From the NCBI GenBank assembly GCA_013426185.1, contig CP058602.1, positions 724,582-788,581 of the forward strand: a stretch of DNA of 64,000 nt, read 5' to 3'. The notes under the pieces were generated by a model that searched no databases, had not been told where the DNA came from, and was given only the letters and a program-made list of their open reading frames with translations. A program made the position numbers and the translations under genes. This stretch comes from Candidatus Woesebacteria bacterium (GTDB taxonomy: Bacteria > Patescibacteriota > Microgenomatia > UBA8517). Shown here piece by piece: positions 9,420 to 50,008 of this stretch (the first letter of the stretch is position 1; each line of letters begins with the position of its first letter).

Positions 9420-9705
9420 TTGCGGGGCTGGGGATCGAACCCAGTCTGGAAGATTATGCCTAAAGTTTTCTCCGATTTCTCGAGAGTGTCGGACTATGTC
9501 TTGCCCGTGAGATAAGAAATCTATCTCAAGGGCTTTGGCGTATAGTCTCTACGGATTTTACATTCATGTAAACCGAACGTAATCTTTCCTCGGCGTTGCC
9601 ATGATCAAATAGATTTTAGGTTTCGCCGATATAGCCAAATTTTTCCCCCATTAAATCGAGGGAAGCCCATTTTGAGCCTTCCGTGCAGCCGTACACTACC
9701 CCGCA
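9420..9705 (-). tRNA. tRNA(CAU) (elongator Met or Ile2/lysidine type) interrupted between U33 and C34 by a group I intron
   Basis: 5' exon TGCGGGGTAGTGTACGGCTGCACGGAAGGCT (9705-9675) and 3' exon CATAATCTTCCAGACTGGGTTCGATCCCCAGCCCCGCA (9458-9421) join to a 69-nt cloverleaf with loop CUCAUAA; acceptor TGCGGGG/CCCCGCA. Confidence 0.75.
9459..9674 (-). ncRNA. group I intron (IC3-like, Azoarcus tRNA-Ile intron-like core) inside tRNA(CAU)
   Basis: 5' exon ends in U, intron ends in G (..ACUUUAGG). An internal guide sequence (GGGCUUCC) pairs with the exon end (GGAAGGCU). Core blocks AUCGGCGAAACCUAA, AUGGCAACGCCGAG and CCGUAGAGACUAUACG resemble the Azoarcus/cyanobacterial tRNA introns as I recall them from memory. 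Confidence 0.7.
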
Positions 9706-9800
9706 TGTTAACTATAAAGAACATGCGCATTATACATGGAATTTGGTAGTTAAGCAACCCCCAATGCGTACCAGTATATATAGTATAATATAACTTAAGG

Positions 9801-10487
9801 ATGGCAAAATTTAAGGAGAGAATAAGGGCAAGAGAGTTAAGGAGGGAAGGTAGAAGCATTAAAGAAATAGCCAGATTGTTAAATGTTTCTCCGGATTCTG
9901 TTAGTCGTTGGTGTAAAGAAGTAAAACTATCAAAAGGTCAAATAAGAGAGTTAGAGAGACGTTGGAAAGATCCAAACTATGGAAAGAGATTAGAGAATTC
10001 TTTAAGACAACAAAAGAAGAGAATATTAAAAACAGAAAAATTGAAGAAGGCGGGTGTAAAAGAGATAGGCAATTTATCTAAAAGAGAACTATTCTTAGTC
10101 GGGGCTTCTTTGTACTGGGCAGAAGGATTCAAAAAAGATAGTCAAGTCGGGTTTGCCAACTCTAGTCCCGAGATGATGAATCTATTTCTCAGATGGCTTT
10201 ATGAGTGCTTTGGTTATAATACTAACGATCTAATGCTAAGGGTAACGGTAAACGTAAGTCATAAATATAGGATCGACGAAATTCAGAATTACTGGTCAGA
10301 AATTACAAAGATTCCTCTGGATAACTTTCAGAAACCCTTTTATCAAAATTTTAAGTGGAAGAAAATTTACGAGAACCCAAATGAATACTACGGTATATTA
10401 AGAATAAAGGTTCGCAAAAGCACTGATTTTTTAAGGAAAATACATGGATATATAGAAGGTTTGAAATTACAATCTCAAATAAGGTAA
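9801..10487 (+). CDS. HTH-domain protein with LAGLIDADG-like C-terminal region (putative free-standing homing endonuclease)
   Basis: N-terminal HTH (RSIKEIARLLNVSPDSVSRW). The block LFLVGASLYWAEGF...FANS resembles the LAGLIDADG of the 16S intron ORF. A decayed paralog at 44870..45559 is also followed by a tRNA. Confidence 0.4.
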   Translation: MAKFKERIRARELRREGRSIKEIARLLNVSPDSVSRWCKEVKLSKGQIRELERRWKDPNYGKRLENSLRQQKKRILKTEKLKKAGVKEIGNLSKRELFLVGASLYWAEGFKKDSQVGFANSSPEMMNLFLRWLYECFGYNTNDLMLRVTVNVSHKYRIDEIQNYWSEITKIPLDNFQKPFYQNFKWKKIYENPNEYYGILRIKVRKSTDFLRKIHGYIEGLKLQSQIR

Positions 10488-11011: not shown

Positions 11012-12013
11012 ATGAAACGTGTTTTTTCAGGTTCAAGACCGACGGGGAAGCTTCATCTTGGTAATTACTTGGGTGGGGTTAAAGGTTATTTGGAGCTTGC
11101 TAGAAACCCACAATTTGAGACTATTTATATGGTGATGGATTTGCATGCTGTTACCACTCCTTTTGATAGAAATAGCTTGGCGCAAAATACAAAAGATGTG
11201 ATTTTGGATTACTTAGCCTCGGGCCTTGATCCTGAAAAATCAATAATTACTGTCCAATCGCTTGTTCCTGAGCACACTTATCTTGCTCACTTGATATCAT
11301 CCACAGTAACAGTGGCCCGTATGCTTCACTTGCCGACTTACAAAGAAAAAATAAAACAGTATCCAAAAGAAGCAACTATGGCTCTTTTGAATTACCCAGT
11401 TCTTATGGCGGCTGATATCTTAGCTTACAAGGCGGATCTAGTTCCAGTGGGAGTTGATCAAGAGCCACATCTTGAGGTAGCCCGTGAGATAGCAAGAAAA
11501 ATGAACGAGAAGTATGGCACTAATTTTCCTGAACCAAAAAGATTTGCAACCAAGGGTGAGTACATTCCTTCTTTGACAGGGGAGGGAAAGATGAGTAAAT
11601 CAGTTGAGGGTAGTTACATTAATTTAACTGATTCACTTGAAGAAATAAGGGCAAAATTGGCTCGAGTTCCAACTGATAGTGGTAGTGGTACCACTGTGCC
11701 TCAAGAAGGCGGAGTATTTACCCTTTTGCTTTTCTCTGGTCTTTTTCTTGGCGATGACGCTCAAAAAGAGCTTGAAGCACAATATACATCATCTGGTATT
11801 AGGTACAAAGAACTAAAAGATAGGCTGGCTAGCGCTATTTTTGAAGAATTAAAGCCGATTCAGGAAAGAAGAAAAGAGATAGAATCAAGAAAAGGCTATC
11901 TTGAAGATGTAATTTTGGATGGAGCAAAGAAGGCAAGAAAAATAGCCTCCCAGATATTGGAGGAGACAAGAGAAAAAATGGGATTTATAAGATTGGTAGA
12001 AAGTAGAACGTAG
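11012..12013 (+). CDS. trpS: tryptophan--tRNA ligase
   Basis: class I HIGH-like TGKLHLGNYLG at N-terminus and KMSKS motif. Confidence 0.9.
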   Translation: MKRVFSGSRPTGKLHLGNYLGGVKGYLELARNPQFETIYMVMDLHAVTTPFDRNSLAQNTKDVILDYLASGLDPEKSIITVQSLVPEHTYLAHLISSTVTVARMLHLPTYKEKIKQYPKEATMALLNYPVLMAADILAYKADLVPVGVDQEPHLEVAREIARKMNEKYGTNFPEPKRFATKGEYIPSLTGEGKMSKSVEGSYINLTDSLEEIRAKLARVPTDSGSGTTVPQEGGVFTLLLFSGLFLGDDAQKELEAQYTSSGIRYKELKDRLASAIFEELKPIQERRKEIESRKGYLEDVILDGAKKARKIASQILEETREKMGFIRLVESRT

Positions 12014-12255
12014 TAAGTATAAAGCAAATAAATAGTTAAAAGTTCAAAGTGCAAAGTTAAAAGTTGGAATTTACTATTCTGTAATTTGAAAAATTGGATA
12101 ATTGTAGAATTGTTTAGAATTTAGGATTTGGACCTTGTAATTTGGAGCTTGGAATTTGTTTGTAATTTGTATATTGGAATTTGTAATTTTATTCTATAAT
12201 CCAAAATCTATAATCTAATCATAAAGTTTTGAATTTTAAGTTTTGAGTTATTTTT
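12014..12255. repeat. mosaic AT-rich modular intergenic repeat region (modules shared with 17419-17782, 55064-55542 etc.)
   Basis: contains gtagaacgtagtaagta..., ttgtaatttggagcttggaatttgtttgtaatttg, tctataatccaaaatctataatcta modules; about 230 nt is the reverse complement of 55100-55330. Confidence 0.8.
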
Positions 12256-12603: not shown

Positions 12604-13123
12604 TAGCTGGGACTAGGGAGCTAGTCGGAGTTGGTCGAAGTTAGTCCTCGCTTACAGCGAGGCTGGTCAAAGCTGGTCGGAAGACAGTATCTAGTATCTT
12701 GTATTATGTATTATGGGAACAATGCATTTTCCTGCATAATACTTAATTCATAATACTAAATTCAGTGTTCCTAATTTGTTTGTGATTTGAAAAATTGGAA
12801 AATTGTAATTTGTTTAGGATTTAGAATTTGGAATTTGTATATTGTAATTTGTTTGTAATTTGGAACTTGGAATTTGGAATTTTGATTTTTACTCTTTGTT
12901 CTCTGTTCTAACCTGGTAGGTAAAAGGCAAGAGGTAAAAGAATTCGGATTTCAGCTATCAGCTGTCAGCTGTGGGAGTTAGTTGTTATCTTAATTCATAA
13001 ATCCTAAATCATAAATCAAAATTCTGTAATCTAATTTTTGACTTTTGAGTTTTAAGTTTTGAGTTATACTTTTGACTTTTAATTTTTGAGTTAGCTCGTT
13101 TTTAAGTGTATAATTAGCTGCTT
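12604..13123. repeat. mosaic modular intergenic repeat region including a 110-nt inverted-repeat module (12676-12790)
   Basis: modules tcggaagacagtatctagtat..gtattatgtattatg[GGAACAATGCATTTTCCTG]cataatac..., gaattcggatttcagctatcagctgtcagctg, ggtaaaaggcaagaggtaaaag. Confidence 0.8.
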
Positions 13124-14977
13124 ATGGAAAATTCTGAAAAAAATAAGCCTGTTATAAAAAAGAGAGTTGAATTTAAGATAAAAATCAATATCTGGAGGAT
13201 TGCTTTGTTTTTCCTCTTTTTGACCTTTTTCCTGCCTTTTTTAGTTACTGTGTTTGACCTTCGCAGGACGGAGACCAATGTAGATATCTCTCAGGCCTTA
13301 AGTGATATCAAACAGGGTAAGGTAAAAGATGTCTTGGTCCAAAATGAAAGGTTAATCTTAAATTATGAGGATGGCTCTACGAAAACCTCAATCAAAGAGC
13401 CAACCGAAAGCTTTTCCGATCTTCTTTCAAAAGAAAAGATAGAGCCATCAAAGGTGAATTACAAAGTGGTTGATCAGTCTTTGTCAAAAAGCGTGATGGA
13501 AGTTTTGGCTGCTGTTTTACCAGTTGTCCTTTTTGCCGCTGTTTTTCTTTTTATCATCAGAGCTCAAAATAGAGCAGCTGGTGATATTTTTTCTTTTGGT
13601 AGATCAAGAGCTAAGGTTTTTGCTAAAGGCAAGCAAAGTGTTACTTTTGACGATGTTGCAGGGGTTGATGATGCCAAAAAAGAGCTTGAGGAGGTTGTTG
13701 ATTTCTTGAAAAATCCAGGCAAATATCGCCGCATGGGCGCAAGAACGCCAAAAGGGGTGCTCTTGTTTGGTCCTTCAGGGGTGGGTAAGACTCTTTTGGC
13801 TCGTGCTGTTGCAGGTGAGGCTGGGGTGCCATTTTTCTCTATGGCCGGTTCCGAATTTATGGAGATGCTAGTTGGGGTTGGTGCCTCGCGAGTTCGTGAT
13901 CTTTTTTCTCAAGCAAAAGCCGCTGCTCCTTCAATAATTTTCATTGACGAAATTGATGCCATTGGAAGGCAAAGAGGCAGAGGTTTTATCGGGGGGCATG
14001 ATGAGCGTGAACAGACTTTAAATCAGATTTTGGTGGAAATGGATGGCTTTACTCCCAATGACAATGTGGTTGTTATTGCTGCAACCAACAGGGGTGATCT
14101 TCTTGATCCAGCACTTTTAAGACCAGGTCGTTTTGACAGGCGTGTTGTTCTTGATATGCCTGATAAGGAAGGAAGGGAAGCAATTCTTAAAATCCATGCC
14201 CGCGGCAAAAAGTTTGCCAAAAAAATTGATTGGGGCAAGATTGCCGATAGAACAGTGGGTTTCTCAGGAGCTGATCTTGAGAACATGCTTAACGAGGCTG
14301 CAATTTTAGCGGCAAGAGATAATAAGAAAGGAATTGATCTTGACGATATTGAAGAGGCAGCAACCAAGGTTAAACTAGGTCCTGCCAAGAGGAAGCTTCA
14401 AAGCGAGGAGGATAAAAAGATAACCGCGTATCATGAAGCAGGACATGCGATAGTTACACACTTTCTTCCCAAGATGGATCCTGTTGAGAGAATTTCAATT
14501 GTTGCCCGCGGTATGAGCCTTGGGCATACTTTAATTCCGCCTGCTTCAGATAGAACGCATGAGACAAAGTCAAGAATCTTAAACCAGATAACAGCAATGC
14601 TTGGAGGAAGGGCAGCCGAGGAGGTTGTTTTTAATGAAATGACATCAGGCGCAGCAAATGATATTGATAAGGCGACAGCTTTGGCTCGGGCGATGGTTGT
14701 TGAATTTGGGATGAGCGATCTTGGTCCTTTAAATCTTGGCCCACAATATGATGTTGATGAATTTGGCAAGACCCAGTGGTATGAGCCCTCAAACATCTCA
14801 CCGGCTATGCAGGAAAAAGTTGACCTTGAGATAAAGAAAATTATTGACTCTTCTTATCGTCAAGCTGTTGCAATAGTTAAGAAAGAAAGGAAAAAGCTTG
14901 ATGCTGTAGTCACAGCGCTTCTTAAGAAAGAAACGTTGACTCGCGACGAATTTGAAAAAATAGTTAATGGCAGGTGA
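13124..14977 (+). CDS. ftsH: ATP-dependent zinc metalloprotease FtsH
   Basis: N-terminal TM, AAA Walker [17 protein letters not shown] zinc-binding motif. Confidence 0.9.
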
Positions 14978-15884
14978 TAAAGACAAAAAACTTGTTTTGA
15001 TAGATGGCCATGCTATCTTGCATCGTGCTTATCATGCGCTTCCTCCTTTAACCTCAAGAGTGGGCCAGGTTAATGCTGTTTATGGTTTTACCTCAATGCT
15101 CTTGAAAATTATCAGCGAATTAAAGCCAAGTTATATTGCAGTTTGCCTTGATAGGAAAGAAAAAACTTTTAGAAAAGAAATGTTTGAGGCTTATCAGGCA
15201 CAGAGGCCTGAAGTTGATAAGGAATTGATCAGCCAAGTTGAGCTTACTAAAGAAGTAATTTCTGCTTTTGGCATAAAAATTTTCTCAGTAGCCGGATTTG
15301 AGGCTGACGATGTGATCGGGACTTTGGCCAAAAAGGCTGAAGGGAATAGTGAAATAGAAGAAGTGATTATTGTCACGGGTGATAGAGATATTTTGCAGCT
15401 TGTTGGAGGAAAGATAAGGGTTTATCTTTTGGTGAAAGGAATTAGTGAAGCGTCTCTTTTTGGTAAGGATGAGGTTGAGGCAAAGATGGGTGTTTTGCCT
15501 CATTTGATTGTTGACTATAAAGCTTTAGTGGGTGATGCTTCGGATAATTACAGTGGTGTTTCGGGTATTGGTCCTAAGACTGCTGTTAAATTGATTTGTG
15601 AGTTTGGCGGTTTTGAGGAAATCTATAAAAATCTTGACAAACTTCCACCAAAAACAAGAGAAATTTTAATTAAAGGTAAAGAAAGTGGAGAGCTTTCCTT
15701 CCGCTTGGCTAAAATTAGGACTGATGTTCCGCTTGAAGTTAGTTTTGATGATCTTAAAAAATGGCAGGTTGACTCTCAGAAAGTTTTTGATATTTTTGAA
15801 GAATTTGGCTTTAAGAGTTTGGCAAAAAGGGTAAAAGAGTTGGGTAAGACCATGGTGACTGAAAATCAAATGCAGCTATTTTAG
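14967..15884 (+). CDS. stand-alone 5'-3' exonuclease (Pol I N-terminal domain / FEN family)
   Basis: LVLIDGHAILHRAYHALP start and acidic metal-binding blocks typical of 5'-3' exonucleases. Confidence 0.8.
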   Translation: MAGDKDKKLVLIDGHAILHRAYHALPPLTSRVGQVNAVYGFTSMLLKIISELKPSYIAVCLDRKEKTFRKEMFEAYQAQRPEVDKELISQVELTKEVISAFGIKIFSVAGFEADDVIGTLAKKAEGNSEIEEVIIVTGDRDILQLVGGKIRVYLLVKGISEASLFGKDEVEAKMGVLPHLIVDYKALVGDASDNYSGVSGIGPKTAVKLICEFGGFEEIYKNLDKLPPKTREILIKGKESGELSFRLAKIRTDVPLEVSFDDLKKWQVDSQKVFDIFEEFGFKSLAKRVKELGKTMVTENQMQLF

Positions 15885-15909
15885 TATCTAGTATTTAGTA
15901 TTATGAATT

Positions 15910-16284
15910 ATGGGGAAGATACACCTTTTTTCTGATCTTAATGCCTGGAAAGAAGCTTATGAGCTTGTAATTTTAGTTTATAAACTTACTGATAAATTTC
16001 CTGCTAAGGAAAATTATGCTCTGACTGGCCAGATGAGAAGATCTGCGGTGTCTATATCTAGCAATATTGCTGAAGGGTTTAGTAGAAGAGGCAAAAGAGA
16101 GAAGATTTTGTTTTATTCAACTTCTTTAGGTTCGCTTACCGAGCTTCAAAGTCAGGTATTGATAGCCAAGGGAGTTGGTTATCTGAGCGGGGAGGATGTA
16201 ACTGCCATTAATGAGAGATTAACTGTTGTTCATAAGCTGATAAACGGTTTAATTAAAGGTGTTACAAAATTGCATAATACATAA
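15910..16284 (+). CDS. four-helix-bundle protein (23S rRNA intervening-sequence protein / Avd-like family), located outside rRNA
   Basis: family signature ...RSAVSISSNIAEGF...; gene is bracketed by the two arms of the long inverted-repeat module (15889-15912 and 16270-16300). Confidence 0.7.
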   Translation: MGKIHLFSDLNAWKEAYELVILVYKLTDKFPAKENYALTGQMRRSAVSISSNIAEGFSRRGKREKILFYSTSLGSLTELQSQVLIAKGVGYLSGEDVTAINERLTVVHKLINGLIKGVTKLHNT

Positions 16285-16287
16285 TAC

Positions 16288-17418
16288 ATGATTCATAATT
16301 CATTTAAAATTGCTTTAGTTCATGACTATATTAAAGAGTTTGGTGGGGCAGAGAGGGTTTTAAAGGTTTTGACTGAGATTTTTCCTGACGCGCCAATCTT
16401 TACTGCTTTTTGTGTTAAAAATTCAACGGCAGAAAAAGAGTTTCGAGGTAAGGAAATCAAGGAAAGCTTTCTTGCGCCTATTTTAAAGCTAGGCAAGCTT
16501 TATTCTCCTTTGCGTTTTTTGATTCCTACAATTTGGGGCAGTTTTGATCTGTCTTCTTATGATTTGGTGATTACTTCCTGCAGTTGGTATGTCACGCGTG
16601 GGTTTAAAACTGGAAAAAGGACAAAAGTTATAGCTTATTGTCATACTCCTCCGCGCTGGCTTTATGGGTATGAGACATCAGTCGGTTTTACCAAATACTG
16701 GCCGGTCAAAATTTATGCTTCAATTGTAGGGCATTTTATCAGGCTTTATGATTTTAAAACTGCCCAAGAAGTTGATTTTTGGATTGCCAATTCTAAAAAT
16801 GTAGCCTCAAGAATTGAAAAGTTTTATAGAAAAAAATCGGTTGTAGTTTACCCTCCTGTTGAAGTTGAAAAAATTATAGATTACACATCTTCTTTCAAAA
16901 AAAAGGAAAATTATTATTTAATTGCTTCCCGCCTCGTGGGGGCAAAGGGGATAGAGGAGGCAATATCTATTTTTCAAAAGCTTGGCAAAAAACTTAAGAT
17001 AGTGGGTGAGGCTCATGGTTTTTCTGATGTTGAATCAAAAGTAAAAGGCGGTAAGTCTAAAAACATAGAATTTTTAGGTAGAGTTTCAGATGAGGAGCTG
17101 TGGGAGCTATATGCAAGATCGAAGGCTTTTGTTGCTTTAGCGCGTGATGAAGATTTTGGAATGACAGTGGTTGAAGCGCAGGCCGCAGGAACGCCAGTTA
17201 TTGCTTTTAACGGCGGCGGATTTAAAGAGTCAGTTATTGATAATGTGACAGGGGTTTTGATTGATGAAGTGAACGAGGCTTCAGTAAGAGAAGCAATTAA
17301 GAAGATCGAAAGAAAAAATTGGAATAAGGCGATTCTTCAAAAAAATGCGAGAAGATTTTCAAAGGAGAGATTTGTTAAAAAGATCAAGAAAATAGTTGGG
17401 AAGCTAGGCCAAAGCTAA
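16288..17418 (+). CDS. glycosyltransferase family 4
   Basis: C-terminal EDFGMTVVEAQAAGTPVIA GT4 signature. Confidence 0.75.
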   Translation: MIHNSFKIALVHDYIKEFGGAERVLKVLTEIFPDAPIFTAFCVKNSTAEKEFRGKEIKESFLAPILKLGKLYSPLRFLIPTIWGSFDLSSYDLVITSCSWYVTRGFKTGKRTKVIAYCHTPPRWLYGYETSVGFTKYWPVKIYASIVGHFIRLYDFKTAQEVDFWIANSKNVASRIEKFYRKKSVVVYPPVEVEKIIDYTSSFKKKENYYLIASRLVGAKGIEEAISIFQKLGKKLKIVGEAHGFSDVESKVKGGKSKNIEFLGRVSDEELWELYARSKAFVALARDEDFGMTVVEAQAAGTPVIAFNGGGFKESVIDNVTGVLIDEVNEASVREAIKKIERKNWNKAILQKNARRFSKERFVKKIKKIVGKLGQS

Positions 17419-17782
17419 TCGGAAGCCAGTATTTAGTATTTTGTATTATGCAGAGAATACAGGTAGAAAGTAGAATGTAGTAAGTAGAAAGCAAATAAAT
17501 AGTTAAAAGTTCAAAGTGCAAAGTTAAAAGAATTCGGATTTCAGCTGTCAGCCGTCAGCTATCAGATTTGAGCGCTATCTAATTCATAAATCTTAAATCC
17601 TAAATCTAGATTCTATGACTTATTTGTAATTTGGAATTTGCCTGCCCGCAATCGCTAAAGCGATAGCTTTTGCAGGCGGGGAATTTGTAATTTTATTCTA
17701 TAATCCAAAATCTATAATCTAGTGTTTTGTGGTAAATTTCAGGTTAAGGAGGTAAAATAGGGGAAAATAAGCAAAACCTTAG
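17419..17782. repeat. mosaic modular intergenic repeat region (left flank of R-M island)
   Basis: modules gtagaaagtagaatgtagtaagtagaaagcaaataaatagttaaaagttcaaagtgcaaag, gaattcggatttcagctgtcagccgtcagc, ggaatttgcctgcccgcaat..gcaggcgggg (also inside 23S at about 56420-56465). Confidence 0.8.
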
Positions 17783-19633
17783 TTGGCAAAAAAAATGAGC
17801 GACAACAATAACCAAGTTGCTGTAGATAAAACAGAGCTTGTCTGGCCCGGGAAGCGTAGGGAAGTTGAGCGAGTGGAGCTTCCGTTTCAGACGATTGAAA
17901 CTATTAATCTTCCGCGTGGTAGGCGACAAGAATCTATCTTTGAAGCAATCCAAAAACAGCAATCTTTGATTTCTCAACCAGAACAACAAATTCTTAGATC
18001 AGAGGAAGGAGAATGGAAAAATCGACTTATTTGGGGTGACAATCTCTTGGTAATGGGTTCGCTTATTAAAGAATTTGCCGGGAAAATTAATCTCATCTAC
18101 ATTGACCCGCCATTTGCGACCGGCGATGATTTTTCCTTTACCGTAAACATCGGCGACCAAGCGGAAATTACCAAAGAGCCGTCCGCGCTGGAAGTAAAAG
18201 CATATCGCGACACGTGGGGCAAAGGCATGCAATCATACCTTCAAATGATGTATGACCGCCTTGTTTTAATGAAAGAGCTTTTGGCAGATAATGGTTCAAT
18301 TTATGTGCATCTGGATTGGCATGTGGGGCATTATGTAAAAATTTTGATGGATGAAATTTTTGGGAGAGATAATTTTAGGAATGAGATTGTTTGGCGTTAT
18401 GGAAAAATGGCAGCTTCATCTAAAAAGTTTTTGTCGAATCATGATGTAATACTTTTCTATACAAAGAGCTATAATTTCACTTTCAATCAGCAATTTATAG
18501 CGTTGGATAAGCCAATTAAAAGATTGGCTAGGACGGTGCGTGATGGGAAACTCGTAAATGTTAAAGATGAAAAAGGTAATTTAGTATATGTCGAAAAGAG
18601 TGACAGAATAGTTGACGATGTCTGGGATGATATTTCTACGGTTATGCATGCCAGCCCTCAATTTCTTAATTTTCCAACACAAAAACCACAGCTACTACTA
18701 GAGCGAATAATCAAAACTTCAAGTAATGAAGGCGATTTAGTAGCTGATTTTTTCTGCGGCTCCGGTACTACTGGAGTTGTAGCAGAAAAACTTGGCAGGC
18801 GGTGGATTATGTGCGATTTGGGGCGATTTGCCATCCACACTACTCGCAAGCGGCTTTTGGATATGGGAGCAAAGCCGTTTGTGGTGCAAAATCTTGGCAA
18901 ATACGAGCGCCACCGCTGGGTGCAACTTAATGGCAGATACAAAGATTACATCAAGTTTATTTTGGAGCTTTATCATGCTGAACCAGTAGAAGGATTTACA
19001 AATTTACATGGCAAAAAAGGAAGTAGTTTTGTTCGCGTGGGAAGTGTTGATGCGCCGGTAACCCTTTCTGAAATCCGTGAAGCCTTGGAAGAATGTAAAG
19101 AAAATAACATCAGAAAATTAGATGTGCTTGGTTGGGAATGGGAAATGGGTTTACATGATTTGGTAAAAGAGGAAGCAGAAAAATATGGGGTAAAACTTGT
19201 GACCCTGCAAATACCGCGAGAGGTTATGGATATTTCTCCGGCGGAAGCAAAAAAACACGACATTCAATTTTTTGAACTTGCTTATTTAGAAGTTGAGCCA
19301 AAAGTTGAAGGTAGGCACGTAACAATTACACTCAAAGATTTTATCATCCCTAATCCTGAATTATTGCCAGAAGAAATAAAAGGCAAGGTAAAAAGTTGGA
19401 GCGATTTTATTGATTATTGGGCAGTGGACTGGATGTTTAATCAGCATGAGGAAGTGACCGAAGAAGATGATACTTTCCATAATATGAACCAGCACTACCG
19501 CACCCGCAAAGAGCCGAAACTGGAACTTTCAATGGGTTACGAATACAAGAATGCCGGAAAATACAATGTGTTAGTAAAAGTAATAGATATATTTGGAAAT
19601 GACACCACCAAGCTTATACAAATTAAAGTTTAG
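17783..19633 (+). CDS. mod: Type III-like restriction-modification Mod subunit (beta-class N6-adenine DNA methyltransferase)
   Basis: motif IV IYIDPPF precedes motif I FCGSGTTGVVAEKLGRRWIMCD (IV-before-I order). Confidence 0.7.
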   Translation: MAKKMSDNNNQVAVDKTELVWPGKRREVERVELPFQTIETINLPRGRRQESIFEAIQKQQSLISQPEQQILRSEEGEWKNRLIWGDNLLVMGSLIKEFAGKINLIYIDPPFATGDDFSFTVNIGDQAEITKEPSALEVKAYRDTWGKGMQSYLQMMYDRLVLMKELLADNGSIYVHLDWHVGHYVKILMDEIFGRDNFRNEIVWRYGKMAASSKKFLSNHDVILFYTKSYNFTFNQQFIALDKPIKRLARTVRDGKLVNVKDEKGNLVYVEKSDRIVDDVWDDISTVMHASPQFLNFPTQKPQLLLERIIKTSSNEGDLVADFFCGSGTTGVVAEKLGRRWIMCDLGRFAIHTTRKRLLDMGAKPFVVQNLGKYERHRWVQLNGRYKDYIKFILELYHAEPVEGFTNLHGKKGSSFVRVGSVDAPVTLSEIREALEECKENNIRKLDVLGWEWEMGLHDLVKEEAEKYGVKLVTLQIPREVMDISPAEAKKHDIQFFELAYLEVEPKVEGRHVTITLKDFIIPNPELLPEEIKGKVKSWSDFIDYWAVDWMFNQHEEVTEEDDTFHNMNQHYRTRKEPKLELSMGYEYKNAGKYNVLVKVIDIFGNDTTKLIQIKV

Positions 19634-19733
19634 TCAAAGTCATTGCCTGCCCCGTAGTCAGCTTTGCTGTACTACTGGGGATATCTTTGGCAATGACACG
19701 ACGAAATTAATTGAAGTTAAGGTTAAATAATCT

Positions 19734-22508
19734 ATGTCAGACACGACAACAAAACCATATAGAGGTTCGGAGTGGAAGAAGTGGGATTTACAAATCCACA
19801 CTTATCTCGATCCTAACTGGAAGTGGCCTTCTGGATACCCAAATGGGAACGATCGACAGCAAGAGCGTATTGCCAAGTTTGAGAACGACTTTATACGGCA
19901 TTGCATTGAAAATCGAATTGAAGGCGTAGCCATAACCGACCACAATGCTGGCGACGCTATAGATGGCTTATTGGTAAAAAATAGAGAACTTGGAAACAAA
20001 GTCACTATCTTGCCCGGGGTAGAAGTTGCAAGCGACGGAGGTACACACCTACTTATAATTTTTGACCCTTCATCTTTTATTAGAAAAAATCGTTGGAATA
20101 CATGGCGAGAAACAGTAGACCATTTCTTAACCGCAATTTTTACAGACAACCCCCGATTTGAGGAACAGAACGGAAGAAATACTCCACTCAATCCTGCTTC
20201 ATCTATTGACCAAATTATCAAGAAAGCAAAAGAGTATTCTGCGATTGTGATTTTTCCTCATGTTTTTTCGCAAGGAACAGGTTTGTTTAGTTGTGACTCA
20301 CGAACTCGCAAAAGGGTTTTGAAAACCTGCAATATTCTGGATATCGCTTGTGTGCAAAGAGACATACAAAAGAAAACAGATGAAGCGAACCGAAAACTTA
20401 CCGGACAAGGTTTCGATTCTAATGATTTTGCTTTTATAAACACTTCTGACTCCCGCAGAATTGAGGATGTCGGTTCAAAGTTCACTTGGATAAAAGCAGA
20501 TGCTACTTTTGAGGGACTGCGACAAATTATCCACGAACCAAAGACACGTGTCAGTATACAAGAAAATCCTCCTTTGTATTTACACCCGCAAATTATTTCT
20601 GCAAAGTTACTCAATGCAAGTAGTTATCAATCCAAGAAAAGCGATTTTCCACCGATTACGCTAACCAAGGAAATATTTTTTAGTCCAAACTTAACTACAA
20701 TTATTGGCCCGAGAGCGGCTGGAAAAACTGTTTTAGTTGAGCTTATCGGTTATGTAGCGAATAGGTTTTCAACGGATAAAAGAGACAAGAAACTCCCATT
20801 GGTGGAATTTTTAAGTAAAGAGTTTTCTGACATTGAAATAGAGGTAACTTTTCAGAGTGGCGCCGAAGAAGTTACCACACTGAAACGTCCGGTGAAGGAA
20901 TGGAACGACCCTTTTTACACTTCGCCTTTCAAAATTGAGTATTGGGCGCAGGGCGAAATCGAGAGAATAGCAAATAGTTCTAATCAAATATCTGATTATA
21001 TTGAGCAAAATTGGCTTAATTCTGATTTCCTCACCAAAACAAAAAGGGAAATAGAAACTTTGCAGAAAGAGATGAAATCTTTGAGAGGTAACTACTCTAA
21101 CAAACTACAAATAGAGATTGAGAAGAAAAAACTTGAAGCCGAGCGTAAACAAATTGAGGCGTACTTCAACAAATTGAAGGCAGAAGAATACAAGCAGATT
21201 ACTGGAAAGATAAAGGAGAACAGGGTAAAGCGTCAGATGATTGAGGGCTTAGTTCAGGACATTAAGAACCAAGCTGCCCTTCTTAAAAATCTTGCGGTAC
21301 AGGTTAGGTTTTTCAGCACGGTTGATAAAGACAAGGTTTTGGAGCTTTTTAGTGCACGGGATCCGTTGAGAAAAAAGATTGAAGGATTTTATCAACTTAA
21401 GGAAACACAACTGGATGCCATCGTTACTGATTTGGAAACGACAGCGAAAGCAATTGAGGACTCGGATGTTAAAAAATCACTTGATAAAGAAAACACGGAA
21501 CTTATCAAGCAGTTTACTGATTACTGTAAAACTAACGGCATTATGATTAGTAAGGGAGAGGTAGAAAAGCGAAATGATAGGATTAAATTCATTGACCAGC
21601 AAGTATCCAAACTAGAAAGCCAACTCCAAAAATTTGAAGGTGATCAAAAACGACACGGGCAACTTGCTGCTGAATTGAGCACAAAACTAAAACTCTGGGA
21701 AAAAGAAAATAATAAACTCATCAATGGATTCAACAGACAATTTGGGAACACGCAAATTTCCGCCTTTTGGAATAATCCAGCGAGTGAGATTGCTGGCTGG
21801 ATAAAAGCGCAATTTCTAGATTCAAACTCGAATCTGAAAGGATTAATTGAAAAAAACTTTAAGACAAAATCACCGGTGCGAGAAGATTATCTTGCGGATA
21901 TCATAGATGAATTGGTTGATAAGTATGGTGATAAAGCGCGAGAAGAAATTGCTTCTATTCTTAAACAAAACAAAGCGCCAAAACTACAAGATAGTAGTGG
22001 AAAAACGGAAACTATACGCTGGTTTTTTGAAGATGAGAATACAAAGCCTATTCGGGAAGATATTATTATGAGGCTAAATGAGTATGCTGAAACGGGCAAC
22101 AATTATATCAAATACGGAAATAAGGTGCTCGGCAAGGACAGTATGTCTTTTGGTGAACGGTGTGGGACACTTGTTGAACTTATACTGCTGTCCGGCGACC
22201 ATCCATTAATTATTGACCAGCCAGAAGATCACTTGGACGCAAAATTCGTGGCGGAAAGAGTCGTTACTTTAATTCGGGAACAGAAGCCTAATAGACAAAT
22301 TATTATCTGTACGCACAATGCAAATATAGTCGTATTGGGTGATTCGGAATTAGTAACTGCGTTAGCGGTAAGTAGTCGAGACAAAGTAAGTATCGAACAA
22401 GGTTCTCTGGAAAATATCCAGATGAAAAAAACAATTTTTGATGTTTTGGAAGGTGGCGAAAGTGCCTTTAAGAAACGTGAGCAAAAATATGGCGAAGCAA
22501 TCAGCTAA
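19734..22508 (+). CDS. PHP-family phosphoesterase fused to coiled-coil ABC/SMC-like (OLD/AAA15-type) ATPase; Ppl-like defence protein
   Basis: N-terminal His-rich PHP blocks (IHTYLDP, AITDHN, THLLIIFD, FPHVFS), Walker A GPRAAGKT, long coiled coil, C-terminal Walker B/D-loop LIIDQPEDHLD and ICTHNAN. Confidence 0.55.
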   Translation: MSDTTTKPYRGSEWKKWDLQIHTYLDPNWKWPSGYPNGNDRQQERIAKFENDFIRHCIENRIEGVAITDHNAGDAIDGLLVKNRELGNKVTILPGVEVASDGGTHLLIIFDPSSFIRKNRWNTWRETVDHFLTAIFTDNPRFEEQNGRNTPLNPASSIDQIIKKAKEYSAIVIFPHVFSQGTGLFSCDSRTRKRVLKTCNILDIACVQRDIQKKTDEANRKLTGQGFDSNDFAFINTSDSRRIEDVGSKFTWIKADATFEGLRQIIHEPKTRVSIQENPPLYLHPQIISAKLLNASSYQSKKSDFPPITLTKEIFFSPNLTTIIGPRAAGKTVLVELIGYVANRFSTDKRDKKLPLVEFLSKEFSDIEIEVTFQSGAEEVTTLKRPVKEWNDPFYTSPFKIEYWAQGEIERIANSSNQISDYIEQNWLNSDFLTKTKREIETLQKEMKSLRGNYSNKLQIEIEKKKLEAERKQIEAYFNKLKAEEYKQITGKIKENRVKRQMIEGLVQDIKNQAALLKNLAVQVRFFSTVDKDKVLELFSARDPLRKKIEGFYQLKETQLDAIVTDLETTAKAIEDSDVKKSLDKENTELIKQFTDYCKTNGIMISKGEVEKRNDRIKFIDQQVSKLESQLQKFEGDQKRHGQLAAELSTKLKLWEKENNKLINGFNRQFGNTQISAFWNNPASEIAGWIKAQFLDSNSNLKGLIEKNFKTKSPVREDYLADIIDELVDKYGDKAREEIASILKQNKAPKLQDSSGKTETIRWFFEDENTKPIREDIIMRLNEYAETGNNYIKYGNKVLGKDSMSFGERCGTLVELILLSGDHPLIIDQPEDHLDAKFVAERVVTLIREQKPNRQIIICTHNANIVVLGDSELVTALAVSSRDKVSIEQGSLENIQMKKTIFDVLEGGESAFKKREQKYGEAIS

Positions 22509-24981
22509 ACAACAATCGGCATTGCCTCTTGTCCGCGCGTTGCAGCCGGTGGTGGCGGCGTGGCGCGAGGGTGGATACAAAGAAGGCACGAGTGAGACAA
22601 CTCGGCGGCTTTTGGAGTGGTGGTTTTGGGAAGACCACGAATTTGCCGACGGAAAACCTTTTGCTTTTTGGCAAGCGCAAAGAAAAGCGATTGAAAATTT
22701 GATTTATTGCTACGAAGTTTTAGAAACGCGCAGTTTGTATCAGTTAGCGCAACGGCTTGATGCAAGGATCCCAGTTGATCCCAGTTCAGATAAATGGGCA
22801 AAATACGCTTTCAAAATGGCAACAGGTTCAGGCAAAACAATGGTGATGGCAATGGCAATTGTTTGGTCATATTTTAATGCGATAAAAGAAAAGCGAGACG
22901 ATTTTACAAAAAATTTTGTGCTTATTGCGCCAAACTTAATTGTGCTTGATCGTTTAATGGGTGATTCAAAAAATCCAGAATTTTTTGAAGGTGGGATTTT
23001 TAAGAAATTTCCTTTTATTCCACCAGAATGGTCATCAGATTTTCAGCTTGATGTCATCGGGCCTGACGAGGAGCGGGAAAGCACTAAACCTGCGACACTT
23101 TATCTTTTAAACTGGCAAAAATTTGTTGAGCGAGAAAACGGTGAAACAGAAAATCCAGTGCAGGATATTTTGGGCCCAAAACCGCCGAGCGAAATTGCTG
23201 TTTCTTTGGCAAAACTCAAAGACAGATTGTCTCGTCTTTCAAATGTGATGGTAATAAATGATGAAGCGCATCGCGTTTGGAGTGAAGAGCTGGTTTGGTA
23301 CAAAGCGATTGAAAATATGTACAATACTGCAGGTCTTATGTGCCAACTTGATTTTTCGGCAACACCAAAAGACCAACAAGGAAATTTATTTACTCATATT
23401 ATTACTGATTATGATTTGGGAAGTGCAATTGAAGATAATATTGTCAAGCGCCCCAAAATCGCCGAGCTTGAAAACGTGCCAGAAATTGAAAGTAAAAAAG
23501 CATCTGAAAAATATCGTGTTCAAATTGATGCAGGTATTAAGCAGTGGAAAATAATGAGAAAAGCGCTTGCTCCAACAGGCAAAAAGCCGGTAATATTTTT
23601 TGTTACAGAAGATAATAAAGCCGCTGATGAAGTTGCTGAATATCTGCAGACGTTTCCTGAATTTAGCGGAGACAAAACTTTAACTATTCATTCCAGTAGA
23701 GCAAAAGATCAGATTGCTGAAAAAGATTTAGCAAAAGCCCGAAAAGCGGCTCGTGAGATTGACTTGCCAAATAATCCTCATAATGCAATTGTTTCAGTTT
23801 TGATGCTTCGTGAGGGTTGGGATGTAAAAAATGTAGTTGTGGTTGTGCCTTTGCGGTCTTTTAGCGCTAAAGCAAAAATTTTTCCAGAGCAGACACTTGG
23901 TAGAGGTTTGCGCAAAATGTGGCCGGAGCAAAAAGATTTAATAGAGGAATTAATTGTTATAGAGCATCCCGAGTTCCATAATTTAATTGAGCAGGCTCTT
24001 GCTGAACAAGGAGTAAAAATTGAATTTACAAAAATTGATGAAGCATATACACCACCAATTATCATTCAAGTTGAAAAGGGTAAGGAAAAGTTTGATATAG
24101 AAGTGCCAATGCTTTCCGGCGGACTGACACATTCTGTAAAAGGAATTGAGAAATTACAAGCAAGTGCTTTAGAAAAGGGTTTATTTGATTACGACTCTTT
24201 GCAGGCGCGAGATGTTGTGATGCGTAAGGTGGATATGCTCACAAAGAAAGAGGAGGGAAAAGAAATATTAGAATTTCCCTATGCTGATAATCCCCAGATT
24301 TATATTGCAAGTATTGCTAATGCAGTTTTGCGGTTTGCGCGAATACCAGGACATTTTGATAAAATTGCCCCAATTGTTAAGGAATACATTGAAAAATATC
24401 TTTTTGAGAGAGAAGTTAATGTTGAAAGTCTTGAGACATTAAAAAAACTTAATCATCCAAAAGTACGCAGCGCAATAGTTTCTGTTCTTGTCGATGCCAT
24501 AAACAATTTGACAGTAGTCTCAGAAGAGATGAAGCTTGAAAATCGAAGGTCGTGTGCATCAGAAATTAAACCTTTTCCGTGGACAAAAGTTGCTGTAGTA
24601 GCGCAAAAGTGCATATTGAATTTTGTACCAGTTGATAATGATTTTGAAGCGAAGTTTGTGAGATTTCTTGATGGAGCAAATGATGTTGATGCTTTTATTA
24701 AGAACGAAACACGAACAATCAATCTTAAGATTCCGTATATTGCCAAGGACGGATTTTTGCGTCGCTACATTCCCGATTTTATCGTTAAAACGAAAAATGC
24801 AACAGCAATTGTAGAAACAAAGGGACGTGAGGACGTTGACGTGGCGGCGAAGGATTTGCAAGGTAAAAGATGGTGTGAGGAGCTTGGCAAGCGAACTGGA
24901 ACAAGATGGATGTTCTTGCGCATTGACCAAAAGGAATTTGAAAAAGCGAGGTATAACAAGTTTGCAGAATTGATAATCTGA
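22489..24981 (+). CDS. res: Type III-like restriction enzyme Res subunit (SF2 helicase + PD-(D/E)xK nuclease)
   Basis: Helicase motif I (TGSGKT), DEAH box (VINDEAHR) and motif III (SATP), plus a C-terminal nuclease block (IPDF...VETKG). The start was chosen at ATG 22489 (MAKQSAKQQ), overlapping the upstream stop by 20 nt; the longer ORF from 22438 was not used. Confidence 0.7.
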   Translation: MAKQSAKQQSALPLVRALQPVVAAWREGGYKEGTSETTRRLLEWWFWEDHEFADGKPFAFWQAQRKAIENLIYCYEVLETRSLYQLAQRLDARIPVDPSSDKWAKYAFKMATGSGKTMVMAMAIVWSYFNAIKEKRDDFTKNFVLIAPNLIVLDRLMGDSKNPEFFEGGIFKKFPFIPPEWSSDFQLDVIGPDEERESTKPATLYLLNWQKFVERENGETENPVQDILGPKPPSEIAVSLAKLKDRLSRLSNVMVINDEAHRVWSEELVWYKAIENMYNTAGLMCQLDFSATPKDQQGNLFTHIITDYDLGSAIEDNIVKRPKIAELENVPEIESKKASEKYRVQIDAGIKQWKIMRKALAPTGKKPVIFFVTEDNKAADEVAEYLQTFPEFSGDKTLTIHSSRAKDQIAEKDLAKARKAAREIDLPNNPHNAIVSVLMLREGWDVKNVVVVVPLRSFSAKAKIFPEQTLGRGLRKMWPEQKDLIEELIVIEHPEFHNLIEQALAEQGVKIEFTKIDEAYTPPIIIQVEKGKEKFDIEVPMLSGGLTHSVKGIEKLQASALEKGLFDYDSLQARDVVMRKVDMLTKKEEGKEILEFPYADNPQIYIASIANAVLRFARIPGHFDKIAPIVKEYIEKYLFEREVNVESLETLKKLNHPKVRSAIVSVLVDAINNLTVVSEEMKLENRRSCASEIKPFPWTKVAVVAQKCILNFVPVDNDFEAKFVRFLDGANDVDAFIKNETRTINLKIPYIAKDGFLRRYIPDFIVKTKNATAIVETKGREDVDVAAKDLQGKRWCEELGKRTGTRWMFLRIDQKEFEKARYNKFAELII

Positions 24982-30234: not shown

Positions 30235-30504
30235 TAAATAGGCGAAGTTGGTCGGAAGGTTGTATTTATATCTTGTATTATGCAGGGAATACAAGTAGAA
30301 AGCAGAACGTAGTAAGTAGAAAGCAAAATTAATAAATAGTTAAAAGTTGTGTATTATCCTTTCTACTTTATACTTACTACTTTCTACTAATTTTAAGTTT
30401 TGACTTTTAAGTTTTAAGTTAGGTTGTACTTTGGATTTTGGGATTTGGAATTTTATTCTATAATCTATTTTCCCCTTATCTCTTTTCCCCAGATTTAGTA
30501 TAAT
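30235..30504. repeat. mosaic modular intergenic repeat region containing an inverted pair of the GTAGAAAG module
   Basis: caagtagaaagcagaacgtagtaagtagaaagc ... cctttctactttatacttactactttctac (reverse complement), tttggattttgggatttggaattttattctataatc. Confidence 0.8.
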
Positions 30505-37283: not shown

Positions 37284-37601
37284 ATGGTAAGACGAAATAA
37301 TGCTCCTCTTCAAAAGAGTTTCTTGAAAATTGGAGATATTCTTAAGGATTTCAAGCCTGATGAAGATAAATATATTTCTTATGAGTTTCAGAAATATGGT
37401 TATGATTTAGCAAGTGAGCTTGGGGATTTGAAAAATAAGTCTTTATACATCAAGCTTGCAAAAGAAGTGCCAAGAGGCTTGCTTGAGGAGGCGCGCAATT
37501 TTGTCAAAGATGCTTATAATGTCAAATCCAAGCCCAAGTTGTTTATGTGGAAGCTGAGCGAGCTTAAAAAGCGAGCGAAGCTTACACACAAGAGGAGTTG
37601 A
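37284..37601 (+). CDS. hypothetical protein whose 3' end runs into the first unit of a tandem repeat
   Basis: ORF only; C-terminus MWKLSELKKRAKLTHKRS is re-encoded by later repeat units. Confidence 0.3.
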   Translation: MVRRNNAPLQKSFLKIGDILKDFKPDEDKYISYEFQKYGYDLASELGDLKNKSLYIKLAKEVPRGLLEEARNFVKDAYNVKSKPKLFMWKLSELKKRAKLTHKRS

Positions 37602-37837
37602 GCGAAGCGAAAATCTCTTATGTGGAAGCTTTCTCGCCTGAGGGGCGAGAAAGCTGAAACACAAGAGGAGCGCAAGCTTTAGCTGAGAACTCTTATGTGG
37701 AAGCTTTCGCAGCTGAAAGCTGCGAAAGCAGACACGCAAGAGCCGCGCAGGCCCTAGGCCGAGAATCTTATGTGGAAGACAAGCGAGCTTAAAAAGCGAG
37801 CGAAGCTTACACACAAGAGGAGTTGAGCAAAGCTTAG
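37543..37837 (+). repeat. tandem array of four 75-nt units (TTATGTGGAAG - 12-bp hairpin - ACACAAGAGGAG - variable tail)
   Basis: Unit starts at 37543, 37618, 37693 and 37768, an exact 75-nt period. The hairpin cores differ between units but stay complementary (CTTTCTCGCC/GGCGAGAAAG versus CTTTCGCAGC/GCTGCGAAAG). Confidence 0.8.
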
Positions 37838-44519: not shown

Positions 44520-44693
44520 ATCGGTATCACGTATCACGAATCAAGTATCAAGAATAGGTAAAAGAGTAAAAGTTGAAAGCTAAAAGAGATCCAAGTAGAA
44601 AGTAGAACGTAGTAAGTAGAAAGCAAAATTCTATAATCTATAATCCAAAATCTATAATCTAATTTTTGACTTTTGAGTTTTAAATTAAATCTG
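44520..44693. repeat. modular intergenic repeat region
   Basis: tcacgtatcacgaatcaagtatcaagaataggtaaaagagtaaaag, caagtagaaagtagaacgtagtaagtagaaagcaaa, tctataatctataatccaaaatctataatc, tttgacttttgagttttaaa. Confidence 0.8.
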
Positions 44694-49557: not shown

Positions 49558-50008
49558 CGAACAGTTAACTGTTAACAATTAACAAATTAACCAATTAAGA
49601 ATAAAATAAGCTGTGGAAACTTTTAGGTTTTTGAATTTTAAAGTTTACGAAGATAGTAAATCTTTTTACAAGAAATGTATTTTGTTGACTAGAAGCTTTA
49701 AGAGGGATTACTGGGAGCTTAAAGACCAACTTTTGAGAGCTGCTCTTTCAGTTTGTCTTAATATAGCCGAAGGTTCAGCAAAATATTCAGATAAAGATTT
49801 TAAACGATTTTTAGAGAATTCTTTGGGATCAATTAATGAGTGTTTAGCTTGTTTAGATATTGCTTTGGAAAATAGAATAATTTCTAAGATTGAATTCACT
49901 AGACTTCAGAAAGAAGCAGAGTCAATTGCAAAGCAACTAGGAGGTTTGATAAAGAAACTCCGCAATTCTTCTTAGTTGTTAATTTTGTTAAATTGTTAAT
50001 TTGTTAAA
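49558..50008 (+). other. 16S helix-6 intervening sequence carrying an ORF, closed by a long AT-rich stem
   Basis: rRNA stem TCCGCAGGACCG / GGTTCTGTCCTGCGGA flanks the insertion; extended complementary arms gaacagttaactgttaacaattaacaaattaacc / ggttaatttgttaattgttaac... Confidence 0.7.
49613..49975 (+). CDS. four-helix-bundle protein (rRNA intervening-sequence protein / Avd-like) encoded inside the 16S intervening sequence
   Basis: family signature ...LRAALSVCLNIAEGSAKYS...; paralog of 15910..16284. Confidence 0.7.
   Translation: METFRFLNFKVYEDSKSFYKKCILLTRSFKRDYWELKDQLLRAALSVCLNIAEGSAKYSDKDFKRFLENSLGSINECLACLDIALENRIISKIEFTRLQKEAESIAKQLGGLIKKLRNSS

Follow-up and report, generated by a model that had tools for sequence, protein, structure and literature searches.

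The window analysed here is a stretch of 64,000 nt from contig CP058602.1 of a Candidatus Woesebacteria bacterium, and at 15883-16302 of it lies a gene for a four-helix-bundle (4HB) protein enclosed by two arms of tandem heptamers. Three short hairpins elsewhere in the window are built from the two ends of the same unit. The reading favoured here, to which a probability of about 0.6 is given, is that 15883-16302 is a resident cassette of the type known from the intervening sequences (IVSs) of rRNA genes, transcribed with its neighbours and with arms that pair in the RNA, and that the hairpins of 79-100 nt are its miniatures, all derived from a single deletion.

The 4HB gene (15910-16284, + strand) is intact and encodes 124 amino acids that match PF05635 (23S_rRNA_IVP) with E=2.5e-33, so that the cassette encodes the S23p-type four-helix-bundle protein expected of an IVS. 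The score of the protein against the bAvd Pfam family was 27.3, under the cut-off of 40, and among solved structures the protein comes closest to 2GSC, a pentameric protein of Xanthomonas (E=9.5e-24). The left arm (15883-15915, + strand) consists of the tandem heptamers TAGTATC TAGTATT TAGTATT ATGAATT ATGGGG, of general form (GTATTWW)n, and holds both the stop codon TAG of the upstream gene (15882-15884) and the 4HB start codon, which is the second ATG (15910) of tattATGaattATGggg. The first-pass annotation of this DNA had rightly placed the start inside the left arm, but had noted the ATG at 15904, the frame of which hits a stop after 10 codons and which is hence not the 4HB start. The right arm (16268-16302, + strand; TTGCATAATACATAATACATGATTCATAATTCA) is made of tandem (WWAATAC)n heptamers, the complement of the left-arm unit. 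As had been noticed, the last bases of the open reading frame (ORF) form the start of this arm: the ORF ends ...AAA TTG CAT AAT ACA TAA, followed by TACATGATTCATAATTCA, and the arm encodes the C-terminus ...KLHNT* and contains the ATG (16288) of the downstream glycosyltransferase gene. Both the first and the last codons of the 4HB gene lie within the inverted arms, in a window with a G+C content of 38.9%.

The three miniatures, all ORF-less, on the + strand and 79 nt long, are at 12686-12764 (where a remnant mini-ORF, ATGGGAACAATGCATTTTCCTGCATAA, is visible), 61509-61587 (downstream of an S1-domain protein gene) and 63550-63628. All of them fold as long imperfect hairpins with z-scores of -3.9 to -4.4. 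Two extend outward to GGAAGAC...GTGTTCC, giving hairpins of 12679-12775 and 63543-63639; three homologous hairpins do exist where near-identical 110-nt copies had been described, but the copy at 61505 is without the outer cggaagaca/tgttcctaat part. Homology on both sides bore out the proposal that the arms around the gene are the two that also form the short hairpins. On the left, the likeness to the short modules extends over 52 nt (15883-15934) with 78-80% identity, and on the right 16271-16302 matches them over 32 nt with 81-88% identity, an exact 15-mer (TGCATAATACATAAT) being common to the focal right arm and two of the modules. A profile made from the three modules matched 15883-15934 (nhmmer E=1.3e-5) in an alignment that runs through the loop. 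A repeat finder likewise placed the left arms in one family (D6: 12686, 15883, 17421, 61509, 63550) and the right arms in another (D13: 12733, 16271, 61556, 63597). The four copies of the module that had been counted were confirmed, and two further partial copies, consisting of the left arm only, were found on the + strand at 17419-17452, directly after the glycosyltransferase gene and at the edge of a strain-variable region, and at 30252-30286, both joined to the same GTAGAAA heptamer module.

The arms are simple heptamers, and similar arrays were found in unrelated genomes without a 4HB gene (39 matches, one of them at a 4HB gene end), as would be expected if the likeness were no more than that of AT-rich, low-complexity heptamer repeats in general. 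Chance of this kind can nevertheless be set aside almost completely. The left-arm 22-mer with up to three mismatches gave 9 matches against a shuffled expectation of 0.00, and the right-arm 15-mer with up to two mismatches gave 14 against 0.17. The arm similarity is therefore above the repeat-rich background; in addition the left match coincides exactly with the start of the focal PF05635 gene and the right match with its stop, and the codon-register remnant described below points to descent. The right-arm pattern was rejected as a tracer of the cassette, being too unspecific: only one of its 39 matches in the genome collection, in locus L052 (the loci fetched for comparison are referred to by L numbers), lies at the end of a 4HB gene, and most are unrelated heptamer arrays, chiefly (CATAATK)n in Bacteroidales. 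Long (CATAATK)n arrays occur in L046, L057, L061, L070 and L077 (Bacteroidales, Avigastranaerophilus), with no 4HB gene in the ~4-8 kb fetched, and the same heptamer family is therefore also found free in gut bacteria.

The origin of the miniatures can be read from their loop. In codon register a miniature reads ATG GGA ACA ATG CAT --- TTT TCT G|CA TAA TAC, and the focal ORF reads ATG GGG AAG ATA CAC CTT TTT TCT G at its 5' end and ...TTG|CAT AAT ACA TAA at its 3' end. The two differ at three third positions, ACA differs from AAG at positions 2 and 3, and one codon is missing from the miniature. The miniature peptide M-G-T-M-H-F-S matches the N-terminus of the family, MG(T/K/E)I(K/H)xFSDL, and the 4HB gene of L052 starts ATGGGAACAATT. 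The 19-nt loop, which had been taken to be empty, is homologous to the first codons of the ORF, and this remnant contradicts the idea that the loop is either empty or filled by the gene. A codon-register loop fused to the 3' end of the gene means that the modules are internal-deletion derivatives of a sister cassette and not of the resident copy. The deletion fused codon 8 to the fourth-last codon of that sister cassette, and the full-length parent of the miniatures would begin ATGGGAACAATGCAT. Two routes had been offered, and the first of them, gene loss into miniatures, agrees with a loop in which a 4HB 5' remnant is fused to the 3' end at the same junction in every copy. The second, insertion of the gene into a pre-existing hairpin, was rejected, as the loop would then already have had to contain codons 1-8 of a conserved protein.

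The junction, ATGGGAACAATGCATTTTNCTGCATAATA (TTTYCTG|CATAATA), was itself the pattern used to search for further copies, so that its invariance is built into the search. No match was found in the species-representative genome collection, and 28 stretches of Joint Genome Institute (JGI) metagenome contigs contained it. With the copies in the window and in the JGI strain L001, these stretches represent at least 18 genomic sites, as judged from reciprocal flank searches, in related Woesebacteria. The miniature core from GTATCTAGTAT to ACTAARTTCA is nearly invariant and the flanks differ among the stretches. One common junction at no fewer than 18 sites implies one deletion followed by spread. A hairpin on the - strand of L067 (7150-7270), with GTATTAW/CATAATAC arms and a loop reading ATGGGTAAAACAAAAACTAATAAG...CATAATACATAA (MGKTKTNKF...IIHNT*), may be an independent deletion remnant of a 4HB gene, of different length.

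The flanks of the miniatures are mostly other repeat modules that combine freely, with ...GGTCGGAAGAYW or GTAGAAAGCAAAAGATT on the left and GTGTTCCTAATYTG... or GAATTTTTCCCTTTGTTCT... on the right, and in some copies (L013, L021) a flank is unique sequence. Comparison of strains revealed block replacements (window 9709-10482 against a 469-nt mosaic carrying the module in L001, and L038 against window 55174-55413), a differing number of heptamers (three ATTATGT units against two) and decay (a miniature with a 23-nt deletion in L039), and no strain comparison contained a clean insertion of a miniature. It could be argued that the unit is a DNA transposon with derivatives resembling MITEs, or miniature inverted-repeat transposable elements, the arms being terminal inverted repeats or single-stranded DNA hairpins for a transposase encoded elsewhere (e.g. 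of the IS200/IS605 or RAYT type), the 4HB gene being cargo and the miniatures being mobilised in trans. The miniatures are indeed hairpin-shaped and nearly identical at 18 or more sites, the same cassette occupies two alternative junctions in relatives, and L001 carries a miniature where the window has a gene for a protein with a helix-turn-helix (HTH). Even so a transposon is unlikely. Its ends should be sharp, but the flanks here are freely assorting repeat modules without target-site duplications; the strain differences amount to block replacement, change of heptamer copy number and internal decay; orthologous arms differ in their number of heptamers; and no transposase adjoins any cassette in the neighbourhoods inspected, which comprised those of the window's relatives and the loci from the Candidate Phyla Radiation (CPR). 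A transposon with target-site duplications as the main explanation was rejected, no duplications or clean insertions having been seen. The earlier description of the unit as a candidate mobile element therefore survives as far as dispersal to 18 or more sites is concerned, but neither a target-site duplication nor a clean empty site nor a transposase was found to go with it. For a resident cassette with miniatures, the deletion product would instead have multiplied to many intergenic sites of the Woesebacteria lineage as one module of the heptamer mosaics, and the mosaic behaviour of the modules favours recombination or gene conversion among heptamer arrays, rather than cut-and-paste transposition, as the probable means of spread.

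The cassette sits between a 5'-3' exonuclease gene (14967-15884, + strand), the stop codon of which overlaps the first heptamer of the left arm, and a GT4 glycosyltransferase gene (16288-17418, + strand), the start codon and first residues of which, MIHNS, are encoded by the right arm. It is found between the same two genes in L001-L008, L015 and L052. The syntenic 4HB proteins of the relatives L006, L007 and L008 are 67-74% identical, and for the orthologs the proportion of nonsynonymous differences (pN) was 0.16-0.20 against a proportion of synonymous differences (pS) of 0.62-0.88, which means that synonymous sites are saturated and that the 4HB gene is under purifying selection. Despite this saturation the flanking arms are still recognisably conserved among orthologs, with a varying number of heptamers. 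The GT4 protein starts MIHNS(F/H/L/K)... from the ATG embedded in the arm in the window, L006, L008 and L052, and starts MKVALVHDY or MRIALVHDY where the arm ATG is unused (L011, L007); in the window the ancestral GT4 ATG has been replaced by TTT. The focal cassette is an old, fixed resident and not a recent insertion, because it is syntenic at 67-74% identity, has saturated synonymous sites and supplies the start codon of its neighbour.

The unit is nevertheless not confined to this junction. In L011, L080 and L082 (62-64% identity) a cassette whose arms belong to the same family is placed elsewhere in the conserved gene block, between tRNA-synt_1b and tRNA_bind; in L011, where both genes are visible, the exonuclease-GT4 interval has no cassette. 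The whole unit, arms and gene, has therefore occupied at least two junctions. Footprints in the form of arm remnants were sought at the cassette-less junctions of relatives and none was seen. More distant members (Saccharibacteria contig L084; L087) retain GTATTWW/WWAATAC arms in other gene contexts, and in most of the 120 closest homologs the right arm supplies the codons for a conserved C-terminus, K(L/I)HNT.

A wider survey also makes clear that PF05635 genes have inverted heptamer arms in general, across phyla. The flanks of genes were compared by an alignment-type inverted-repeat score. Duplex energy was rejected as a test, as control genes averaged -24 kcal/mol and the focal family was unexceptional, although the 4HB genes taken together did score lower (p=7e-4). 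By the alignment score 13 of 14 distinct 4HB genes at CPR loci ranked within the top 1-7% when set against 210 control genes (Mann-Whitney p=4.6e-8). The arm heptamers differ by family, and include GTATTAT, TTAACAA (in the 16S IVS), AGTTCCA, AGTCCTA and TAGTTAT, with two further units, GATATTAAG and AAGTATCAA, that are slightly longer than 7 bases. A tblastn search of plasmids gave 40 records with a PF05635 gene, mostly from Nostocales, and 13 of the 15 plasmid-borne genes fetched exceeded the 95th percentile of 82 control ORFs (p=1e-6), although several of the 15 are orthologs and the independent cases are correspondingly fewer. Here the arms are (CAGGAGT)n/(GACTCCT)n, (GGGAACA)n, (GGGTGTA)n or (GGGAAAA)n, and (AAGGTTC)n in Riemerella. 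An Azospirillum match is a classical IVS of 23S helix 45 and also has heptamer arms. In Coxiella three tandem GACAGAT heptamers precede the S23p start in a number that varies with the strain, and RNase III cuts at the first repeat (PMC4990558).

Heptamer arrays are also abundant in their own right. The window contains 43 period-7 arrays, which make up 1.6% of its bases, and its intergenic DNA is assembled like a mosaic from reusable modules, which consist of degenerate tandem heptamers (GTAGAAA, CAGCTRT/CGGAYAT, TTTGACT/TTTAAGT, CTATAAT, GGAATTT, TTGGTCG), many with reverse-complement partners with which they form long hairpins; examples are 11960-12255, 12604-13123, 17419-17780, 30245-30500, 44560-44690, 55100-55900 and 61433-62020. 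Among the long simple repeats of many bacteria, those of heptanucleotides are the commonest (Mrazek 2007, as cited in PMC4679880). The arrays might accordingly be primary, generated by slippage and recombination, with the 4HB gene as a resident or preferential lander among them, the miniatures as mere passengers when mosaics are duplicated or undergo gene conversion, and a stem that has no dedicated function. The number and ubiquity of the arrays, since every intergenic region of the window is such a mosaic, the variation of ATTATGT between three and two copies, the replacement of modules as blocks and the two cassettes with direct arrays would fit this explanation, which is possible but doubtful. 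In four plasmid stretches checked, period-7 arrays are rare (0.05-0.7% of bases, or 2-5 per 20-40 kb), yet in three of the four the 4HB gene has an array on either side. Arms are inverted in 13/15 plasmid and 13/14 CPR cases, and the gene keeps them across CPR phyla, with even its conserved C-terminus KLHNT encoded in them. Arms that are kept with the gene, and are inverted in most cases, point to a unit and not to a coincidence.

In the cyanobacterial plasmids the PF05635 gene is typically wedged co-directionally into operons. Cassettes were also observed inside cas operons, at cas10|cmr3 and cas6|cas4 junctions (L092 Picosynechococcus, L094 Pseudanabaena, L106 Anabaena sp. 90). PF05635 has been listed as a CRISPR-associated family (PMC10910872), and insertion of the cassette into cas operons may account for the presence of PF05635 genes there and possibly explains the listing.

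How the focal cassette behaves as RNA has to be judged from its setting and its folding. The cassette is co-directional with the exonuclease and GT4 genes and tightly packed between them and has no convincing promoter, which suggests that it depends on read-through; most likely it lacks a promoter of its own and would be co-transcribed with the two genes. Its minimum free energy fold pairs the two arms, so that its complementary termini close a stem as those of IVSs do. In the transcript the arms would thus close the ORF in an AU-rich stem, and this stem may be processed by RNase III in the manner of rRNA IVS stems, for which such processing has been established in Salmonella, Leptospira and Coxiella (PMC4990558). 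Excision by RNase III would make a cassette tolerable in any transcript, whether at an rRNA helix tip or at an operon junction.

Several observations weigh against this reading. The first-pass annotation had described the arms as a long inverted repeat, which is true of the miniatures but hardly of the focal copy: its arm-to-arm pairing amounts to 23 imperfect AU-rich pairs at -15.8 kcal/mol, a value equalled by 20 of 500 shuffles, and the whole 446-nt fold around the cassette has a z-score of only -1.85. The arms overlap translated codons of three genes, and ribosomes would therefore often melt the stem. Being weak and overlapping translated codons, the stem at the focal site may be vestigial or only regulatory. 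An RNase III signature motif was not found in the window and the fetched loci. The copies of the miniature are too alike to reveal covariation. The heptamer arrays of the Pseudanabaena and Nostoc 7120 cassettes are direct, not inverted, and the stem may therefore not be the essential feature. Finally, no target-site duplications were seen among the 28 distinct copies of the miniature, and a clean empty site, sought in the strain comparisons, was not found either, only block replacements and the one decayed copy. The orthologous heptamer arms pair in several registers, which makes a column-wise alignment of them impossible.

The same facts bear on whether the arms are simply a local cis-regulatory hairpin for the translation or stability of the 4HB and GT4 messages, with the short hairpins not as relics but as independent functional RNAs that serve as stabilisers, processing sites or terminators. 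The arms contain both start codons as well as the 4HB stop codon, the miniatures fold well (z about -4), in all contexts but one their orientation fits sense transcription from a neighbour as 5' or 3' untranslated region, and an A-to-G polymorphism retains a pair only as a G-U wobble on the + strand. Against this, there is no terminator-like T-run after any of the hairpins, all stems are AU-rich, and a promoter and terminator scan gave counts no higher than shuffles and no terminator at the arms or at module 12686-12764, the only module in the scanned range, neither of which has the GC-rich stem and T-run of an intrinsic terminator. No Rfam family was matched, a permissive threshold yielding only spurious sub-threshold matches. 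Moreover the loop is a codon-register gene remnant, for which a selected RNA element would have no need, and copies decay, as the 23-nt deletion in L039 illustrates. A purely regulatory role is thus improbable, more so than a transposon.

The rRNA genes of the window themselves contain IVSs. A 16S helix-6 IVS (49560-50010, + strand) with (TTAACAA)n/(TTGTTAA)n arms forms a 39-bp stem enclosing a PF05635 gene (49613-49975; E=1.2e-26), which is 31% identical to its focal paralog, and the claim that this paralog is likewise enclosed by a long stem holds. The true 5' end of the 16S gene is near 49476 and the helix-6 insertion is ~450 nt long. The 23S gene (55916-60062) is 4147 nt long against a model of 2925 positions. 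Its first three insertions, all ORF-less and on the + strand, are a CAACAAT-family heptamer hairpin at 56077-56184 (about model position 165), a stretch of mosaic modules at 56295-56497 that includes a 38-nt GC-rich hairpin, and a heptamer hairpin at 56787-56892 (about model position 583, in the helix-25 region, a classical IVS site); these hairpins of CAACAAT-type heptamers and mosaic modules have z-scores of -6.2 to -8.3. The 38-nt hairpin (CTGCCCGCAATGCTTTCAGCATAGCTGATGCAGGCGGG, 56424-56461), for which Rfam gave no match at the gathering threshold, is found again in intergenic mosaics of L027, L032, L040 and L022, and a variant is present in L008 (6730-6770). The 23S IVSs and the intergenic mosaics therefore draw on one pool of modules, which supports the tie between rRNA IVSs and dispersed hairpins that had been proposed, and the heptamer mosaics that contain the miniature would also be what fills the 23S IVSs. 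Further 23S insertions with CAACAAT heptamers lie at ~57950-58650, and ORFs in these further insertions (58136-58600 on the + strand, 57607-57987 on the - strand) have no Pfam matches. The 16S-23S spacer (51470-55915) is 4.4 kb long and contains a LAGLIDADG fragment (51915-52232), two tRNA genes and, on the opposite strand, a gene for a 717-aa TrwB/TraG-like ATPase (52787-54940).

Among known systems the cassette most resembles the ORF-containing rRNA IVSs of Leptospira, of Coxiella burnetii (helix-45 S23p) and of CPR 16S and 23S genes, in which a PF05635 ORF is closed by terminal inverted repeats. The Coxiella IVS shares with it tandem heptamers, in variable number, just upstream of the start codon (PMC4990558), and the 16S helix-6 element of the window is a straightforward member of the group (PMC11270868). 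Unlike rRNA IVSs, the focal cassette is not inside an rRNA gene at a helix tip, where only the paralogous element at 49560-50010 is found, but lies at the exonuclease-GT4 junction, where it overlaps the stop codon of one protein-coding gene and the start codon of the next; its stem is far weaker (23 versus 39 bp); and it has ORF-less miniatures dispersed in intergenic DNA. With MITEs the miniatures have in common that they are short, non-coding inverted-repeat derivatives produced by internal deletion and present in many near-identical copies, here as hairpins of 79-100 nt at 18 sites or more. In contrast to MITEs, no target-site duplications were seen around them, they occur within mosaics of independently assorting modules, and the parent encodes a PF05635 protein only and no known transposase, so that an autonomous element of the usual kind is missing. 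They recall the repetitive extragenic palindromes and bacterial interspersed mosaic elements (REP/BIME) of enterobacteria, which are likewise intergenic imperfect palindromes in mosaics between co-directional genes with a proposed role in mRNA, but differ from them in sequence and in organisation as tandem heptamers, and the origin of one module in a protein-coding cassette is here plain to see. No RAYT (TnpA-REP) gene was noticed among the scanned ORFs of the window, in which no search aimed at RAYT was made. Avd of diversity-generating retroelements is a basic pentamer that binds nucleic acid and reverse transcriptase. The four-helix-bundle homology of Avd and PF05635 proteins has been described (PMC10053308). 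Unlike Avd, the focal gene has no adjoining reverse transcriptase or template/variable repeats, none having been found beside the 4HB gene in the window or in the neighbourhoods of relatives inspected, and its bAvd score is below the cut-off.

Heptamer repeats comparable to the arms have been described as the short tandemly repeated repetitive (STRR) sequences of cyanobacteria, the GGGAATC inverted pairs of Xanthomonas and the TAACTGA repeats of Beggiatoaceae, which are intergenic tandem heptamers and sometimes form convergent inverted pairs, 70-75 of them in the case of GGGAATC (PMC4692102). The lineages concerned are also rich in PF05635 genes. The arrays here bracket a PF05635 gene; the searchable text of the two papers on heptanucleotide repeats (PMC4692102 and PMC4679880, on Xanthomonas/Nostoc and Beggiatoaceae) contains no mention of S23p, 'helix bundle' or intervening sequences.

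IVSs with S23p/PF05635 ORFs have been known since the early 1990s, and such ORFs are on record in CPR 16S and 23S insertions (PMC11270868). An old hypothesis regards IVSs as mobile elements and their ORF as a means of mobility (Ralph and McClelland 1993, as cited in PMC4990558), and both the mobility of IVSs and the role of S23p have been described as unresolved (PMC4990558). The openly searchable literature, subscription-only papers being outside its reach, contained no account of cassettes outside rRNA that have IVS-type arms, nor of their miniatures, nor of a general link between heptamer arms and the gene. The cassette described here lives outside rRNA in ordinary operons and keeps its inverted heptamer arms across phyla, and once its gene is lost a hairpin miniature can remain and multiply. 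These observations bear on the 30-year-old question of what rRNA intervening sequences are, and suggest a connection with heptanucleotide repeats, whose abundance in cyanobacteria, Bacteroidota, Xanthomonas and CPR bacteria has had no explanation. A bolder and quite tentative extension is that PF05635 proteins and tandem-heptamer arrays are the two halves of one widespread selfish or semi-domesticated system, in which the gene would always travel between inverted arrays, the protein would bind the repeats in RNA or DNA form and promote their processing, copying or spread, and ORF-less hairpins would be non-autonomous derivatives. By analogy with Avd the basic, pentameric protein might then act with a reverse transcriptase, and the derivatives would include the classical short rRNA IVSs and CPR intergenic mosaics, and possibly also the cyanobacterial STRRs and the inverted heptamer pairs of Xanthomonas. 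If true, this would provide a single explanation for the origin of rRNA IVSs and of long heptanucleotide repeats.

Other features of the window were noted in passing. Strains that are otherwise 98-99.9% identical diverge directly after the GT4 gene, at the partial left-arm copy, over window 17419-24981 and L001 11510-20375. On the side of the window this region encodes a DNA methylase, an SMC/AAA_21-like protein and a ResIII helicase, and on that of L001 a Cas12a (Cpf1) locus with Cas1 and Cas2; 17419-24981 looks like a variable defence island bounded by repeat mosaic. The HTH-protein gene mentioned above (9709-10487) encodes 228 amino acids with a transposase-like HTH, and it is its segment 9709-10482 that is replaced in L001 by the 469-nt mosaic with a miniature. 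Between this gene and the DivIC gene a group I intron match (60 bits) lies on the - strand at 9469-9726, where no rRNA or tRNA host gene is evident. At 37528-37833 approximately four tandem copies of a 75-nt unit, CTCTTATGTGGAAGC...stem...ACACAAGAG, are located between small genes, each with a GC-rich hairpin of its own.

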